Sequence record: MN850590.1
Reading direction: 5' to 3' (one strand)
Length of the DNA: 64,000 bases
Source of the DNA: Escherichia phage moha
Shown: in pieces, positions 9,526-56,538 of the stretch
How the letters are laid out: each line of letters opens with the position of its first letter
Position numbering within the stretch: position 1 is the stretch's first letter
Notes under the pieces: model-generated
What the model saw: the letters and a program-made list of their open reading frames with translations, nothing else
The model's database searches: none
What the model was told of the DNA's origin: nothing
Translations under genes and position numbers: made by a program

Positions 9526-11210
9526 AATCATTTAAATTAAATCGTGTTCGTTATCAAAACATCATGTCGGTAGGTGGGAATCCTATCGATATCCAATTAG
9601 ATAAAGTCCAAAAGACCTTAATCACCGGTAAAAATGGCGGTGGTAAATCTACGATGTTAGAAGCCATTACTTTCGGACTTTTCGGTAAACCATTTCGTGA
9701 TGTTAAGAAAGGACAAATCATTAATAGCACGAACAAGAAAGAGCTCTTAGTTGAGCTTTGGATGGAATTCGATGATAAAAAATACTTCATTAGACGCGGC
9801 CAAAAGCCCAATATTTTCGAAATCTCCGTTGACGGTGTTCGTCTCGATGAATCTGCCAGCAGTCGTGACTTCCAAGAAGAATTTGAACGTAGCATCGGAA
9901 TGTCATACGCGTCTTTTAAACAAATCGTTGTGCTTGGGACGGCAGGGTATACCCCTTTCATGGCTCTTAGCACCCCTGCTCGTAGAAAACTTGTCGAAGA
10001 CCTTTTAGAAGTCGGCACACTCGCTGAAATGGATAAAATCAATAAGTCTCAAGTTCGAGAACTTAATTCCCAGGGACAAGTTCTCGATGCTAAGAAAGAT
10101 GGTGTTATCCAACAAATTAAGATTTATAACGAGAATATCGAACGTCAAAAGAAATTATCTGGTGATAATGTAGCGCGTCTACAGAATATGTATGACGACC
10201 TAGCCAAAGAAGCTCGTTCATTAAAAGCAGAAATCGAAGAAGCTAATGAGCGACTACTTAATATCGTTCTTGATGAAGACCCTACTGAGGCATTCAACAA
10301 GATAGGACAAGAAGCATTCTTGATTAAATCTAAAATCGACTCATATAACAAAGTTATTAAGATGTATCATGACGGTGGCACATGTCCTACTTGTGCATCA
10401 CAGTTGCACCAGGGTGATCCTATTGTCTCTAAGATTACCGATAAGCTTCACGAATGTAATCACTCATTCGAACAACTTACATGTCACAGAGATAATCTGA
10501 GTGTCCTAGTGGACGAATACAGAGCCAATGTTAAGACTAAACAGGACCTTGCATCTGATATTCGTACCAAGAAACAAGCAATGATTGCCACTATTGATAA
10601 AGCTAAGAAAGTTAAAGCTGCAATAGAGCAAGCCTCAGCAGAATTTATCGACCATGCCGATGAGATAGCTTTGCTTCAAAAAGAACTTGATAAAATCATT
10701 AAAACAAAATCAGATATCGTTCTTGAAAAATACCATCGTGGTATTATCACAGATATGTTAAAAGATTCTGGTATTAAAGGTGCTATCATTAAAAAATATG
10801 TGCCTCTGTTCAACAAGCAGATTAACCATTATCTTAAAATCATGGAAGCTGATTACGTGTTTTCTATTGATGAAGAATTCAATGAATCTATAAAATCACG
10901 TGGTCGTGAAGATTTTAGTTATGCTTCATTTAGTCAAGGTGAAAAAGCACGCATTGATATCGCGTTGTTGTTTACATGGCGAGATATTGCTGAAAAGGTC
11001 TCTGGTGTTAAAATCAACACTCTGATTCTTGATGAGGTTTTTGATGGGGCAGTTGATTCTGAAGCTGTTAAGGCTATAGATACCATTCTTGGAAGTTTAC
11101 AAAATACTAACGTGTTCATTATTTCTCATAGGGACCATGACCCTCAACGTTATGGACAACATTTGCAAATGAGCAAAGTTGGACGATTTACTGTAATGAC
11201 TGTTTCATAA
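9522..11210 (+). CDS. 46: Recombination ATPase subunit gp46 (Rad50/SbcC-like)
   Basis: Walker A GKNGGGKST, coiled-coil middle with CPTC zinc hook, signature/Walker B region LILDEVFD. Confidence 0.9.
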   Translation: MKSFKLNRVRYQNIMSVGGNPIDIQLDKVQKTLITGKNGGGKSTMLEAITFGLFGKPFRDVKKGQIINSTNKKELLVELWMEFDDKKYFIRRGQKPNIFEISVDGVRLDESASSRDFQEEFERSIGMSYASFKQIVVLGTAGYTPFMALSTPARRKLVEDLLEVGTLAEMDKINKSQVRELNSQGQVLDAKKDGVIQQIKIYNENIERQKKLSGDNVARLQNMYDDLAKEARSLKAEIEEANERLLNIVLDEDPTEAFNKIGQEAFLIKSKIDSYNKVIKMYHDGGTCPTCASQLHQGDPIVSKITDKLHECNHSFEQLTCHRDNLSVLVDEYRANVKTKQDLASDIRTKKQAMIATIDKAKKVKAAIEQASAEFIDHADEIALLQKELDKIIKTKSDIVLEKYHRGIITDMLKDSGIKGAIIKKYVPLFNKQINHYLKIMEADYVFSIDEEFNESIKSRGREDFSYASFSQGEKARIDIALLFTWRDIAEKVSGVKINTLILDEVFDGAVDSEAVKAIDTILGSLQNTNVFIISHRDHDPQRYGQHLQMSKVGRFTVMTVS

Positions 11211-13650: not shown

Positions 13651-14214
13651 ATGAACTTATTCGATGATGACGTCCAGCTTAACGAGCACCAAATTGCATG
13701 GAAGTCTAATGACGCTGATGCGATTCAAAAATGTGCTGATATGTTTAAAGAAAAACCTGAGAATGAATTCTTTAAAATCATTAATGCTATTAATGAAAAG
13801 AAATCTATGTCAATTGCTCAGGTCGACTACTCAAAATTTATGGTTGAGAACTCGTTATCCCAGTTCCCAGAATGTATGCCAGCTGTTTACATGATGAACT
13901 TAGTCGGTTCTGAATTAAGCGATGAAGCGCACTTCAACTATATGATGGCGGCAATTCCGCGTGGTCGTCGATTCTCTAAATGGGCTAAACTAGTCGAAGA
14001 CACTTCAGAGTTACTAGTTATCAAACTGTTGATGAAACATTACACAATCAACATGAATGATGCTACTGAGTATAAGCGGCTCCTTGAAAAAAATAACAAG
14101 TTGCCAATAGTCCTTAAAGAACTGAAGGCCATGGTCACTGATGAGTTTCTCAAAGAAGTTACAAAAAATGTGAAAGAACAAAAACAATTTAAAAAATTAG
14201 CATTGGAATGGTAA
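13651..14214 (+). CDS. 62: Clamp loader small subunit gp62
   Basis: Size (187 aa) and position between 44 and regA. Confidence 0.7.
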
Positions 14215-14216
14215 AA

Positions 14217-14585
14217 ATGATTGAAATTAAATTGAAGAACCCTGAAGATTTTCTGAAAGTCAAAGAGACTTTGACCCGTATGGGCATCGCTAATAACAAG
14301 GATAAAGTTCTTTATCAGTCCTGTCATATCCTCCAAAAGCAAGGTAAGTACTATATTGTCCACTTTAAAGAAATGTTGCGTATGGATGGACGTCAGGTTG
14401 ATATTGATGGTGAAGACTATCAGCGTCGTGATTCGATTGCTCAGTTGCTTGAAGACTGGGGCTTGATTGTTATTGAAGACTCTGCTCGTGAAGATCTGTT
14501 TAGCCTGACTAATAACTTCCGTGTTATCTCTTTTAAACAGAAAGATGACTGGACTTTGAAAGCAAAATATACAATTGGTAATTAA
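14217..14585 (+). CDS. regA: Translational repressor RegA
   Basis: 122 aa, T4 RegA-like sequence as recalled (LKVKETLTRMGIANNKDKVLYQSCHIL); position before gene 43. Confidence 0.85.
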   Translation: MIEIKLKNPEDFLKVKETLTRMGIANNKDKVLYQSCHILQKQGKYYIVHFKEMLRMDGRQVDIDGEDYQRRDSIAQLLEDWGLIVIEDSAREDLFSLTNNFRVISFKQKDDWTLKAKYTIGN

Positions 14586-14589
14586 AGCA

Positions 14590-14611
14590 ATGGGACTTCG
14601 GTCCCATTTGG
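14590..14611 (+). terminator. Hairpin after regA (weak terminator or gene 43 leader structure)
   Basis: ATGGGAC-TTCG-GTCCCAT followed by TTGG. Confidence 0.4.
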
Positions 14612-14666
14612 AGTATAATAAGTTCATCAACAAACAAAAGACAATAACTCGTCTAAAGGAAATTAA

Positions 14667-17418: not shown

Positions 17419-18054
17419 ATGAAAACTACTCCTATTACTATCGCTATTGACGCAATCGTAAAACAAGCTTCTTCTTTGGCTACTATGGCCAAAGTAATTA
17501 GTCAAAACCCTGCTCGTTATAATGCTATTCTAGAAACTCTTCGACGCCCAGGACTTAGCAATTATGAAAGCCGAGTAATTATTACAGGTGTTGGTAAGAA
17601 TGCTAATATTGCAACTAAAGCTTCTGAGACATTTGCTTCACTCGGTATCCCAAGTATGTACTTGAACACCGGGCATTATTCTCACGGTGATGCAGGATTC
17701 ATTGCGCCTAATGATGTGTTGATTCATATTAGTCGTTCTGGTAAGACCGAAGAAATGATAGGTGTTGCTAAACATCTTCGTATGATTCGTCCGAACGTCA
17801 AACAGATTCTGTTGCATTGTAACCCAGACATTCCACAAGAAAATGAAGCCCTTTTTGATTACTCTTTCTGTACAGGCATCGCAGTAGAGGTTGACGAGAA
17901 CTCTTTAGCTCCGACTATGTCTACTACATTGTTGTTAGCGCTTATCGATACGTTTGCTATCAACCTTTCGTCTGAGCGTGGATTTACCTCTAATGACTTC
18001 CTTAAGTTCCACCCTGGTGGTGCACTAGGTGCCATGTTACGAGGCGAACAATGA
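17419..18054 (+). CDS. SIS-domain sugar-phosphate isomerase (KdsD/GutQ-like arabinose-5-phosphate isomerase, no CBS domains)
   Basis: ITGVGKNANIA, HISRSGKTEE, LAPTMSTT, HPGGALG blocks co-linear with KdsD SIS domain. Confidence 0.8.
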   Translation: MKTTPITIAIDAIVKQASSLATMAKVISQNPARYNAILETLRRPGLSNYESRVIITGVGKNANIATKASETFASLGIPSMYLNTGHYSHGDAGFIAPNDVLIHISRSGKTEEMIGVAKHLRMIRPNVKQILLHCNPDIPQENEALFDYSFCTGIAVEVDENSLAPTMSTTLLLALIDTFAINLSSERGFTSNDFLKFHPGGALGAMLRGEQ

Positions 18055-30697: not shown

Positions 30698-30736
30698 TAT
30701 GATGGCCTTATTAATTTAAGGCCTCTGGAGAATACT

Positions 30737-31759
30737 ATGGCTGAATGGATAGATAATGAATTTGCTTATCGTGCGTTTTCTCACCTACCTCGTTTTAGAC
30801 AAATTAATAATTCAAGCACATTTAAATTAACATTTCGTTGTCCAGTTTGTGGCGACTCTCAGACAGATGCAATGAAAGCTCGCGGATGGTATTACGGTGG
30901 TACTCCTGGTAATGTACATTGCTATAACTGTCAATACCACAATACAATTTCCGGATACTTAAAAGAGTATGATGAAGAGCTTTATCGCGAATATCTAATG
31001 GAAGTTCGTAAAGAAAAAGCTAGAATGGAACCAAAGATTGAAAAGGTTCCTGAACATAAACCAGAACCGGAGAAAAAGACTATAAATTCTTTGCCGTCTT
31101 GTTCTCGTCTGGACAAGTTGCCTGAAGAGCATCCTATTGTGAAATATGTTAAGTCTCGGTGTATTCCTAAAGAATCATGGAACAGATTATGGTTCACATT
31201 AGAATGGCCCAAATTGGTCAACAAGATTCAACCTGGTACGTATAAGAAAGAGATTCCCGAACCACGTTTAGTTATTCCTATTTTTAATAAAGATGGGAAG
31301 GCCGAGTCATTCCAAGGACGTGCACTTCGTAAAGATGCTCCTCAGAAATATATCACTATTAAAGCGTTTGAGTCTGCAACAAAAATTTATGGTGTTGAAC
31401 GTGTTAAGGAAGGGGACGTCTGGGTAATGGAAGGCCCTATTGATAGTTTATTCATACCCAATGCAATCGCTATTACAGGCGGCTCAATAGATTTAGATGT
31501 GGTACCATTTAAAGAACGTCGGGTATGGGTAATGGATAATGAACCTAGGCATCCAGATACTATAGCTCGCATGAAGCGATTAGTTGATGCAGGCGAACGT
31601 GTCATGTTCTGGGACCGAGCTCCATGGAGATCAAAGGATGTGAATGATATGGTAATGAAAGAAAATGCAACACCACAAGAAATTTTAGAATATATGAAAC
31701 AGAATATTTCAAGTGGGTTGCATGCTAAAATGAGATTATCTCGTTATTCGAAGATTTAA
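30737..31759 (+). CDS. 61: DNA primase gp61
   Basis: N-terminal zinc ribbon CPVCGDS...CYNC; Toprim-like C-terminal part; 340 aa. Confidence 0.85.
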   Translation: MAEWIDNEFAYRAFSHLPRFRQINNSSTFKLTFRCPVCGDSQTDAMKARGWYYGGTPGNVHCYNCQYHNTISGYLKEYDEELYREYLMEVRKEKARMEPKIEKVPEHKPEPEKKTINSLPSCSRLDKLPEEHPIVKYVKSRCIPKESWNRLWFTLEWPKLVNKIQPGTYKKEIPEPRLVIPIFNKDGKAESFQGRALRKDAPQKYITIKAFESATKIYGVERVKEGDVWVMEGPIDSLFIPNAIAITGGSIDLDVVPFKERRVWVMDNEPRHPDTIARMKRLVDAGERVMFWDRAPWRSKDVNDMVMKENATPQEILEYMKQNISSGLHAKMRLSRYSKI

Positions 31760-31953
31760 ACAAGTCCTATAATAGCAAAGGCCAAATCAACTACAGTATC
31801 CAATGGAACAGAAGGAACTATAATACCATGGGCAACTAACAATGGTGCAATCCCGAAGTTCCATGAAATAATGCCACCTACAACTATTGCAGCGATAGCA
31901 GTTTTCTTTTTATTGCCTTTAATAGCGTTGATTAACGATGGAAGTTTAAACAT
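31756..31953 (-). CDS. Hypothetical small membrane protein (antisense orientation to surrounding early genes)
   Basis: 65 aa, two hydrophobic segments; GGAG RBS 7 nt upstream on - strand. Confidence 0.4.
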   Translation of the reverse strand: MFKLPSLINAIKGNKKKTAIAAIVVGGIISWNFGIAPLLVAHGIIVPSVPLDTVVDLAFAIIGLV

Positions 31954-32041
31954 AATATCTCCTTAGTTACCTATTATTTATTACGCTTTATAAAATTAAT
32001 GTTAGAATTAACTCTCTTATACTGAATTGAAAGGAAAAATA

Positions 32042-32563
32042 ATGGCACACTTTAACGAATGTTCACAACTTATTTCTGGTGTTGATAAAGCAGAAGAAGC
32101 TTATTTTAATGCTCTGATTCACGAAGATAAAGACCCACTGCAGGTAATGCTTGATATGCAGAAATCTTTACAGGTTCGTCTGGCAAATGACAAGCCTGAA
32201 CATAACAAACATCCTGATGAATTGGTCACTGCTGGCGATGTTGTTGATTGGCTGCGTAATCAGAAAGATTATATTGATGATGAATTCCGTGAACTGCTGA
32301 CTTCACTTGGTGGTATGAGCAATGGTGAAAAAGCCGCTAGCTCTGTATGGAAGCCATGGAAAGCACAACATGCTGAATATCGAAATCGTCGTATCGATGA
32401 ACTGTCTCCTGAAGACCAGCTTGAAATTAAATTTGAAATGATTGATATTCTGCACTTCGTTCTGAACATGTTCCAAGGTCTGGGTCTTTCTGCTGAAGAA
32501 ATCTTTAAACTGTATTATCTGAAGAATGCTGAAAACTTTGCTCGTCAAGACCGAGGTTATTAA
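32042..32563 (+). CDS. 56: dCTP pyrophosphatase gp56 (MazG-like)
   Basis: All-alpha MazG-like sequence with acidic block EDQLEIKFEMIDILHF; position after gene 61. Confidence 0.7.
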   Translation: MAHFNECSQLISGVDKAEEAYFNALIHEDKDPLQVMLDMQKSLQVRLANDKPEHNKHPDELVTAGDVVDWLRNQKDYIDDEFRELLTSLGGMSNGEKAASSVWKPWKAQHAEYRNRRIDELSPEDQLEIKFEMIDILHFVLNMFQGLGLSAEEIFKLYYLKNAENFARQDRGY

Positions 32564-33189: not shown

Positions 33190-33198
33190 ATAATTTAA

Positions 33199-33224
33199 GG
33201 AATCCTTCGGGATTCCTTTTTTTT
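33199..33224 (+). terminator. Intrinsic terminator
   Basis: GGAATCC-TTCG-GGATTCC followed by TTTTTTTT. Confidence 0.8.
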
Positions 33225-34374: not shown

Positions 34375-34554
34375 ATGGACCTTATGAGTATGTTTGACGA
34401 GCCTGAAGTTGAGGCTCCTAAAGTGCATCGTAGTGAACTTGTTGATGAACTAGATAGTATTATACAGCGTCATGGATTTAGTTTACCATTAGATGTCCTG
34501 AAAGACCTCGCCTCTTATTATGATGACCCTCCACCATGGAGTCCTTGGAAATGA
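34375..34554 (+). CDS. Hypothetical acidic protein
   Basis: ATG 34375. Confidence 0.4.
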   Translation: MDLMSMFDEPEVEAPKVHRSELVDELDSIIQRHGFSLPLDVLKDLASYYDDPPPWSPWK

Positions 34555-34715
34555 AAGAGAAATTGAAAGAGAAATTCTTACTAGAAATCAAGGAAAAAGA
34601 CTTTGAGACATGGTATCGAATGGTGAAAGGGTTGACATTGCTTTTTAAAGCATCCTTATTCATGTTAGAACAACCTGGTCCTGATGGTCCTTTAGTAGGA
34701 AAGCTTAAAAAGTAG
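34551..34715 (+). CDS. Hypothetical small protein (54 aa)
   Basis: ATGA overlap; below ORF-track cutoff. Confidence 0.25.
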   Translation: MKEKLKEKFLLEIKEKDFETWYRMVKGLTLLFKASLFMLEQPGPDGPLVGKLKK

Positions 34716-55605: not shown

Positions 55606-55878
55606 ATGAATAAAGATATTGAAATCGTACGTGAAATTATTACTATTGCTTCTATTTTGATTAAATTCTCTAGGGAAGATATTGTTGAAGACCGAGCAAG
55701 TTTCATCGGATTCTTGAATGAGATTGGAATTAAAAAAGATGGTCGGCAGCTAAATCAGAATTCGTTCAGAAAACTAATTACAAATTTAACTGCCGAAGAA
55801 AAGAAAACACTGATTAGTGAATTCAATGAAGGTTTTGAAAATATTTATCGTCATTTAGCGATGTATTCTAACAACTAA
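55606..55878 (+). CDS. asiA: Anti-sigma-70 factor AsiA
   Basis: 90 aa; near-identity to T4 AsiA as recalled (VREIITIASILIKFSREDIVE...FNEGFE). Confidence 0.9.
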   Translation: MNKDIEIVREIITIASILIKFSREDIVEDRASFIGFLNEIGIKKDGRQLNQNSFRKLITNLTAEEKKTLISEFNEGFENIYRHLAMYSNN

Positions 55879-56538
55879 TTATTTAGCCCTTCCTAGTATT
55901 CGGACCGCTTGGTTGCATATAGCCGCTAAGCGATCTTCCTCAAGTATATTATTCCCCTTATACCAATACATCGTCACAGTTCCAGCATAGATGTTATCCA
56001 AATTAAAGTATGGACAACTATACATATAAGAAAGTTCGGCAGTCTTAGATTTTGTAGGCAAAAATGCAAATTCTGATTTAGATGAGAAATGACGGCCACT
56101 TAAATGAATTATATATTCATTGGCCGTTTTATCCACCGGGAATCCGCCAAGGGACTTTTCAGAAATTGTGCTAGGTAGTTTGCCTTCATAAGCTATAAGG
56201 TCGACAAAATAATTTAAGTTTTTAGGTCTGAAAGAATACACAGCACTAAAATCTGCACCAGATGAGATATGAACTATTTGCAGTTGTTCTAGAGCCGCAG
56301 ATTCAAAACGTAAAGCTCGTTCTTTTTGGATTATTTCAGTATAAGTATCATACTTAGCTCTTACATAATAATCCAGCAAAATACTTCCTTTGTACCATAT
56401 TAGTGCCATTAGGAACAAAAGAATAATTACCGCTACTCGGGACATTAAAACCTTTCCAGTAGCGTTATCTTTGAAAATACGATCTAGCAACCCAAATAGA
56501 ATATCACTAGGCGAAAATGACACTTTTGGTGTTGCCAT
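55879..56538 (-). CDS. t: Holin T
   Basis: 219 aa; T4 holin-like (SFSPSDILFG..LDRIFKDNATGKV; single TM; YMYSCPYFNLDNIYAG). Confidence 0.9.
   Translation of the reverse strand: MATPKVSFSPSDILFGLLDRIFKDNATGKVLMSRVAVIILLFLMALIWYKGSILLDYYVRAKYDTYTEIIQKERALRFESAALEQLQIVHISSGADFSAVYSFRPKNLNYFVDLIAYEGKLPSTISEKSLGGFPVDKTANEYIIHLSGRHFSSKSEFAFLPTKSKTAELSYMYSCPYFNLDNIYAGTVTMYWYKGNNILEEDRLAAICNQAVRILGRAK

Follow-up and report, generated by a model that had tools for sequence, protein, structure and literature searches.

A 64,000-nucleotide stretch of Escherichia phage moha (sequence record MN850590.1), referred to throughout as the window, was analyzed around a short open reading frame (ORF) located on the minus strand at positions 31756 to 31953. 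The window belongs to a Mosigvirus, an RB69-like T-even phage, and its region from 31400 to 32400 is 99% identical to JN02, Shf125875, and HX01. The ORF starts with ATG, is present in the program-made ORF list, and encodes the 65-aa protein MFKLPSLINAIKGNKKKTAIAAIVVGGIISWNFGIAPLLVAHGIIVPSVPLDTVVDLAFAIIGLV; as the ortholog of RB69ORF029w and a match to PHROG 2024, it was designated the coding sequence (CDS) of a membrane microprotein. A Shine-Dalgarno sequence, AAGGAG, can be read on the minus strand at 31959 to 31964, 5 nt before the ATG. At its 3' end the small ORF meets gene 61, the convergently oriented DNA primase gene (plus strand, 30737 to 31759; PHROG 47, E = 1.1e-101, and the annotation of relatives), with the stop codons of the two genes overlapping by 4 nt in the sequence TTAA (31756 to 31759, both strands). 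The divergent neighbor is gene 56, encoding dCTPase (plus strand, 32042 to 32563; PHROG 173, E = 1e-45, and the annotation of relatives). A first-pass annotation of this DNA had described a 65-aa minus-strand ORF with a GGAG ribosome-binding site and a 4-nt overlap with the primase stop codon, and all of these details agree exactly with the sequence and the ORF list.

Profile and translated searches identified the small ORF as a true coding gene of the T-even phages, belonging to the RB69ORF029w family. Residues 1 to 65 of its 65 residues match PHROG 2024, a family of unknown function (E = 1.9e-27), and the same PHROG was matched by 19/19 diverse family members. RB69ORF029w (NP_861719), which was already annotated in the RB69 genome adjoining gene 61, shares 64 of the 65 residues (98% identity) and represents the same gene in a sister Mosigvirus, at the same position and in the same orientation by gene 61, with no substantive difference. 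In close relatives of the window the gene is annotated as "hypothetical protein" or "putative transmembrane protein." The family was identified in 692 phage records by tblastn with the window protein, and three different family queries returned 692, 183, and 594 records, respectively. No literature was found under RB69ORF029w or under T4-style names such as 61.-1 or dam.1.

With the exception of the 4-nt stop codon overlap, no plus-strand gene overlaps the small ORF; therefore, the coding constraint described here belongs to the small ORF itself. Codon comparison of the window gene with the copy in L009 identified 12 synonymous (Sd) and 4 nonsynonymous (Nd) differences, giving a ratio of nonsynonymous to synonymous substitution rates (dN/dS) of 0.09. 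The copies in T4 and L012 gave a dN/dS of 0.12, those in Marfa and Potts1 a dN/dS of 0.09 (dS 0.88, dN 0.08), and the type-B copies (a subtype described below) of two Gapriverviruses, L004 and L010, a dN/dS of 0.05. Overall, dN/dS was approximately 0.05 to 0.16 across unsaturated pairs and approximately 0.09 to 0.16 within a genus, while between genera the proportion of synonymous differences (pS) was saturated at approximately 0.7 to 0.8, with a proportion of nonsynonymous differences (pN) of approximately 0.33. Length differences between copies were seen in the alignments to be in-frame 9-nt deletions. Alignment A2 shows no variation at W31, N32, P37, G43, P47, or G63; when the alignment is broadened (A3), P37 stays invariant and W31 and N32 nearly so. 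The family core, W-N-[FYL]-x3-P ... G-x3-P in a 60- to 70-aa protein, is present in the window protein. Profile searches added further 60- to 70-aa members with only 15 to 30% identity, and a hidden Markov model (HMM) search of 1.84 billion representatives returned 16 proteins of 33 to 70 aa, of which those inspected carry the same core motif.

Wherever the genomic context could be read, the small ORF was found to face the primase gene in convergent orientation and to adjoin its 3' end, the distant member P0115 being the exception. This synteny with gene 61 was seen in Tequatrovirus, Mosigvirus, Gaprivervirus, Jiaodavirus, Gelderlandvirus, Kanagawavirus, and Marfavirus, as well as in several metagenomic T4-like contigs. 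The 4-nt tail-to-tail overlap is the usual arrangement and was seen in T4, Marfa, Potts1, L023, L025, CF-SP2, and KLB31. Conservation in relatives, which had been suggested in the first-pass annotation as a check on the ORF, was thus found as the same gene in the same place, under purifying selection, across at least seven genera.

The T4 ortholog encodes a 66-aa protein with 54% identity and is located at 17738 to 17938 (plus strand) of NC_000866, equivalent to 2239 to 2439 of L002. It sits in the 310-bp gap between dam and gene 61, with AAAGGAGG and GATAAATA upstream. Like the window gene, it has the same 4-nt overlap with gene 61, the same Shine-Dalgarno sequence, and a promoter-like box (GATAAATA) 21 nt upstream; T4 differs from the window in that dam is inserted between the small ORF and gene 56. 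The T4 ortholog has no annotation in either RefSeq NC_000866.4 or GenBank AF158101.6 and was called by Pyrodigal in the newer T4 record OZ209057.

Family members could be segregated into two subtypes. Type A includes the window protein, the T4 protein, and copy 1 of Gaprivervirus, while type B follows the pattern MGTLFYQIWKL...FLWNLLVVPIAATQGV.LPQVTMEH. Some Gapriverviruses harbor the two in tandem in the order A then B (L004, 2501 to 2907; L010 and L016, 3001 to 3407), and the order B then A was identified in the Mosigvirus-like contig L029 (3501 to 3914). Codon 2 of the type-B copy is altered to a stop in both CJ20 and L017, where ATGGGA has become ATGTGA (L005 and L017, just after 2698/3198); part of the CJ20 copy is deleted as well. 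The distant member P0115 (69 aa; L028, 3501 to 3710) lies among tail (late) genes in an unrelated, temperate-phage-like contig that is not of T4 type; therefore, the family is not strictly confined to T4-like phages. P0115 is flanked on one side by a tail tip gene of the lambda J kind together with an endonuclease VII gene and on the other by a serine recombinase gene. A lysis-cassette context was considered for this member and set aside, as its neighbors, among which there was a weak match to "minor tail protein," are uninformative.

In T4, TATAAATA at positions -13 to -6 is the late promoter recognized by gp55. A putative T4-type (gp55-dependent) late promoter box, AATAAATA, was identified on the minus strand of the window at 31975 to 31982, ending 21 nt before the ATG of the small ORF and matching TATAAATA at 7/8 positions; the heptamer ATAAATA occupies 31975 to 31981. 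From this box, the late transcript is predicted to start at approximately 31967 to 31969 (minus strand). When the 60 nt preceding the start codon were aligned in 10 diverged lineages, conservation was limited to two elements, the Shine-Dalgarno sequence (GGAG/GGAGG) and the ATAAATA heptamer, and the flanks were not alignable. The T4 late-promoter core, NATAAATA, was present in 10/10 lineages, with its 3' end 14 to 22 nt before the ATG. The complete box reads AATAAATA in the window, in other Mosigviruses, and in a Tequatrovirus variant (L011/L014), GATAAATA in T4 and L024, CATAAATA in Gaprivervirus, L023, and L025, and TATAAATA, a perfect match, in Marfa, Potts1, and L022. Outside T4, in RB69 and further relatives, the T at -13 is known to be poorly conserved, the position being either A or T (Nolan et al. 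2006).

ATAAATA is approximately 4- to 5-fold underrepresented in the window, with seven copies on both strands (31975, 32915, 55842, 56559, 58614, 60797, and 61314) versus 30.2 ± 4.8 in shuffled sequences. Four of the seven lie 20 to 31 nt upstream of start codons, namely those of holin t, gp36, soc, and the small ORF. No sigma-70-like promoter was found on the minus strand near the small ORF. Given the conserved NATAAATA box, the depletion of the heptamer and its placement before late genes, and the lack of a sigma-70-like promoter nearby, it is most likely that the small ORF has its own late promoter and is transcribed late.

Back-to-back with the late box is a putative MotA-type middle promoter of gene 56 (plus strand, 31984 to 32008), read from the sequence as CGCTTTA (31984 to 31990), a 12-nt spacer, and TAGAAT (32003 to 32008); these elements resemble the T4 middle-promoter consensus. 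According to a review, T4 has a MotA-dependent promoter near oriA/56. A MotA-dependent transcript near 56 in T4 is believed to prime oriA. For T4 transcription more broadly, a differential RNA sequencing (dRNA-seq) preprint gives 150 transcription start sites (TSS), 22 of them antisense (bioRxiv 10.1101/2024.04.04.588121); no T4 ribosome-profiling (Ribo-seq) study was found in the literature.

An AlphaFold2 model of the window protein, built with the family alignment, had a predicted local distance difference test score (pLDDT) of 82.8 and contained helices at residues 3 to 11, 15 to 41 (27 residues), and 51 to 62 (12 residues). The first-pass annotation had attributed two hydrophobic segments to the protein, and two such stretches do exist, but only the first, at approximately residues 18 to 41, is long enough to span the membrane. 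In agreement with this, a published TMHMM run on RB69ORF029w gave one transmembrane (TM) segment at 21 to 41, and SignalP was negative. The second stretch, at approximately residues 51 to 65, includes two Asp residues and corresponds to the 12-residue helix of the model; as modeled, its short length and acidic residues make it unsuited to crossing the membrane, and the protein is predicted to have one membrane-spanning segment, not two. The further suggestion that the ORF could encode a real small membrane protein finds strong support in the purifying selection, the strong Shine-Dalgarno sequence, the late-promoter box, the synteny in at least seven genera, and the confident single-TM model.

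W31, N32, and P37 fall within the TM helix (W-N-x4-P), G43 and P47 lie just after it, and type-B members have an additional conserved Asp in the helix. These polar residues suggest that the TM helix does not simply anchor the protein but serves in functional interactions. As the basic patch KGNKKK precedes the helix, the positive-inside rule suggests an N-in/C-out orientation. A signal-arrest-release (SAR) domain, for which the TM helix would have to be rich in Gly, Ala, Ser, and Thr, was also considered; by our own count, Gly, Ala, Ser, and Thr together make up approximately 42% of the TM helix in the window protein and approximately 18% in type B, and the candidate was rejected because this feature is inconsistent.

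Several other features were noted in the surrounding sequence. Between approximately 14 and 55 kb, a greedy ORF map contained only two other minus-strand ORFs (14040 to 14627 and 34478 to 34663), both of which look like chance antisense ORFs, and the late tail-fibre/holin block on the minus strand starts at approximately 55.9 kb. One of the ATAAATA copies (55842 to 55848, minus strand) lies shortly past the stop codon of holin t, directed antisense into a plus-strand ORF at 55606 to 55878. Directly after soc, a 9-bp GC-containing hairpin with a T-run (33197 to 33218), also scored on the opposite strand, is likely to be the terminator of the soc late transcript. A perfect 7-bp hairpin, GGCCTTA-AATTAA-TAAGGCC (30704 to 30723), occupies the short gap directly upstream of gene 61 and may limit read-through into the primase gene; in Kanagawavirus KLB31, a terminator hairpin is annotated at the corresponding spot (L034, 2696 to 2724), with its T-run on the early strand.

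Taking these data together, we consider it likely, with a probability of roughly 80%, that the small ORF encodes a real, late-expressed, bitopic inner-membrane microprotein of the Tevenvirinae. The sequence comparisons and the model show selection on the protein, a conserved gene order, a promoter-like box, and an architecture with one TM helix; the late timing, the topology, and most of all the partner and the physiological role are inferred. The gene would be transcribed late from its own gp55-type promoter (NATAAATA) and translated from the strong Shine-Dalgarno sequence into a bitopic inner-membrane protein of 60 to 70 residues. Its short basic N terminus would be cytoplasmic, followed by one TM helix with the invariant W-N-x4-P and a periplasmic tail of approximately 24 residues (G-x3-P ... 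D/E) ending in a short hydrophobic helix. As a putative small membrane-protein modulator, it would use the polar residues of its TM helix and the short tail to engage a further envelope protein, of the phage or of the host, in the late phase, with possible consequences for lysis timing, envelope integrity, or membrane-associated assembly, for instance. The tail-to-tail overlap with gene 61 would reflect genome compaction, with antisense transcription into gene 61 as a by-product. A bolder and rather unlikely extension is that the protein is an undiscovered late envelope component of T-even phages, e.g., a TM partner of the holin/antiholin or a participant in membrane-associated head assembly, and that read-through might also help to shut off primase synthesis late.

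A number of observations weigh against the proposed late envelope function. No homolog with a known function was identified. Pfam and NCBIfam gave no match even at E ≤ 10, a sequence profile search of the PDB returned only noise (acetylcholine-receptor TM helices, E ≥ 0.1), and Foldseek found nothing in the PDB; in BFVD, Foldseek placed family members at ranks 1 to 3, and matches beyond them were insignificant (E > 5). The gene is also missing from the Krischvirus RB49, in which gene 56 starts 14 nt after gene 61 (L030; RB49 10009 to 10022), without dam and without the small ORF; it is therefore accessory, not core. The promoter box matches at 7/8 positions in this phage, and the list of RB69 late promoters obtained from an HMM scan does not include this site (Nolan et al. 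2006). The mode of action proposed above is thus a reading of the architecture.

Alternative explanations for the locus were also weighed. The ORF is short, AT-rich, and not annotated in the T4 reference, as might be expected of a chance ORF without function; this reading is effectively refuted by a dN/dS of approximately 0.1, the family-wide conservation, the synteny, and the promoter box. The first-pass annotation had alternatively proposed an antisense element controlling 61/56, in which case the locus would act mainly as a cis-antisense RNA against the 61-56 junction and the 3' part of gene 61, lowering primase (and read-through 56) mRNA late, and the ORF would be incidental or secondary. 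In favor of this model, the convergent arrangement with its 4-nt overlap is conserved across genera, and late antisense transcription is known elsewhere in T4, at gene 32 (Belin et al. 1987, as described in a citing paper). There is no terminator-like site between the small ORF and gene 61, nor on the minus strand for more than 7 kb (31756 to 24000), and with the stop codon overlap this means that any late transcript has to continue into gene 61 in antisense; read-through gene 61 (primase) mRNA may thus be affected as a side effect. However, the same stretch of minus strand offers no terminator-like site to define a discrete antisense RNA, and conservation is at the amino acid level, with synonymous sites saturated. 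A function of the RNA only would not keep W-N-x4-P...G...P at 20 to 30% identity, and the Shine-Dalgarno sequence is both strong and conserved. The predicted late transcript had no match in Rfam and a folding z-score of +0.57, indicating no unusual structure, both of which count against an antisense role. As its predicted start and the putative gene 56 promoter point away from each other, the late RNA would not pair with promoter-proximal 56 mRNA, and RB49 possesses genes 61 and 56 without the small ORF. Antisense control of 61/56 is therefore not supported as the reason for the existence of the ORF; judged from the sequence, the conservation can be accounted for without it, and we regard a mainly antisense locus as decidedly improbable.

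Two further readings accept a membrane-directed product and differ as to its nature. In favor of a strictly defined lysis protein, such as a holin, a pinholin, or an antiholin-like factor timing membrane permeabilization, the product is a small, apparently late membrane protein with one TM helix; the ortholog in vB_EcoM_OE5505 is named "Holin" in UniProt, and two distant members had marginal matches to holin PHROGs (E = 5e-4 and 0.012). The UniProt label has no visible experimental basis, however, and the PHROG matches are weak and to two different families. Holins end in a charged, hydrophilic C-terminal domain, whereas the C terminus of the window protein (...DLAFAIIGLV) is hydrophobic, with no charged residue in the last nine positions, and the protein has just one full TM helix. 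Furthermore, the window already has a canonical holin T (PF11031, E = 4e-92; 55879 to 56538, minus strand), no lysis gene is adjacent to the small ORF, its neighbors being the primase and dCTPase genes, and Pfam gave no match. With no charged C terminus, holin T present, and marginal PHROG matches, identification as a holin was rejected, and a narrow lysis role appears improbable. It is more improbable still that the N-terminal stretch of approximately 41 residues serves as a long signal peptide whose cleavage releases a periplasmic or secreted hydrophobic peptide of approximately 24 residues (HGIIVPSVPLDTVVDLAFAIIGLV). A basic N-region, a Pro at -5, and small residues at -3/-1 before H/Q/N-G (A-I-A|HG in T4, A-L-A|HG in Gaprivervirus, and L-V-A|HG in the window), which make the site AXA-like in T4 and Gaprivervirus, would fit such a peptide, but the hydrophobic core of approximately 19 to 24 residues is longer than a typical h-region (7 to 15), signal peptides do not usually contain invariant residues such as the W31/N32 inside it, position -1 is F or T in some members, and the published SignalP result for RB69ORF029w was negative.

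For the window itself, the small ORF is an ordinary gene, already known and annotated as hypothetical in relatives, rather than a new regulatory element. New here are the family-wide late-promoter box, the A/B paralogs, the strict synteny with the primase gene, and the omission from the reference T4 annotation. That annotation shows an empty 310-bp gap between dam and gene 61, whereas the gap holds a gene that is under purifying selection in at least seven genera. CRISPRi-ART libraries targeted all CDSs annotated in NCBI records, and screens and studies relying on NCBI annotation may have missed this gene. As a probable late membrane microprotein, its product is one more candidate among the poorly understood small membrane proteins of phages and a cheap experimental target.

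Compared with known systems, the preferred reading of a late bitopic microprotein places the window protein alongside small bitopic regulators such as E. coli AcrZ, MgrB, and MgtS and the T4 RI antiholin, which likewise are of <70 aa with a single TM segment, conserved polar helix residues, and no enzymatic domain. 

The analogy is one of mode of action only, with no sequence or fold relationship to the small ORF protein, and the periplasmic domain of T4 RI is of approximately 70 aa versus approximately 24 residues here. Like the holins (T4 T, class III; lambda S, class I; and S21, class II), the product would be a small membrane protein made late by a lytic phage; unlike them, it has one TM helix and a short tail without a charged C-terminal domain. 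At the level of transcription, the locus resembles lambda OOP RNA, directed at the 3' end of cII, and the T4 gene 32 antisense RNA, in that a late promoter would direct transcription toward the 3' end of an early gene, the two being convergent, and give a complementary transcript. Unlike those antisense RNAs, the transcript of the small ORF would have no defined terminator and no conserved RNA structure, and it carries a predicted translated ORF that is under purifying selection.

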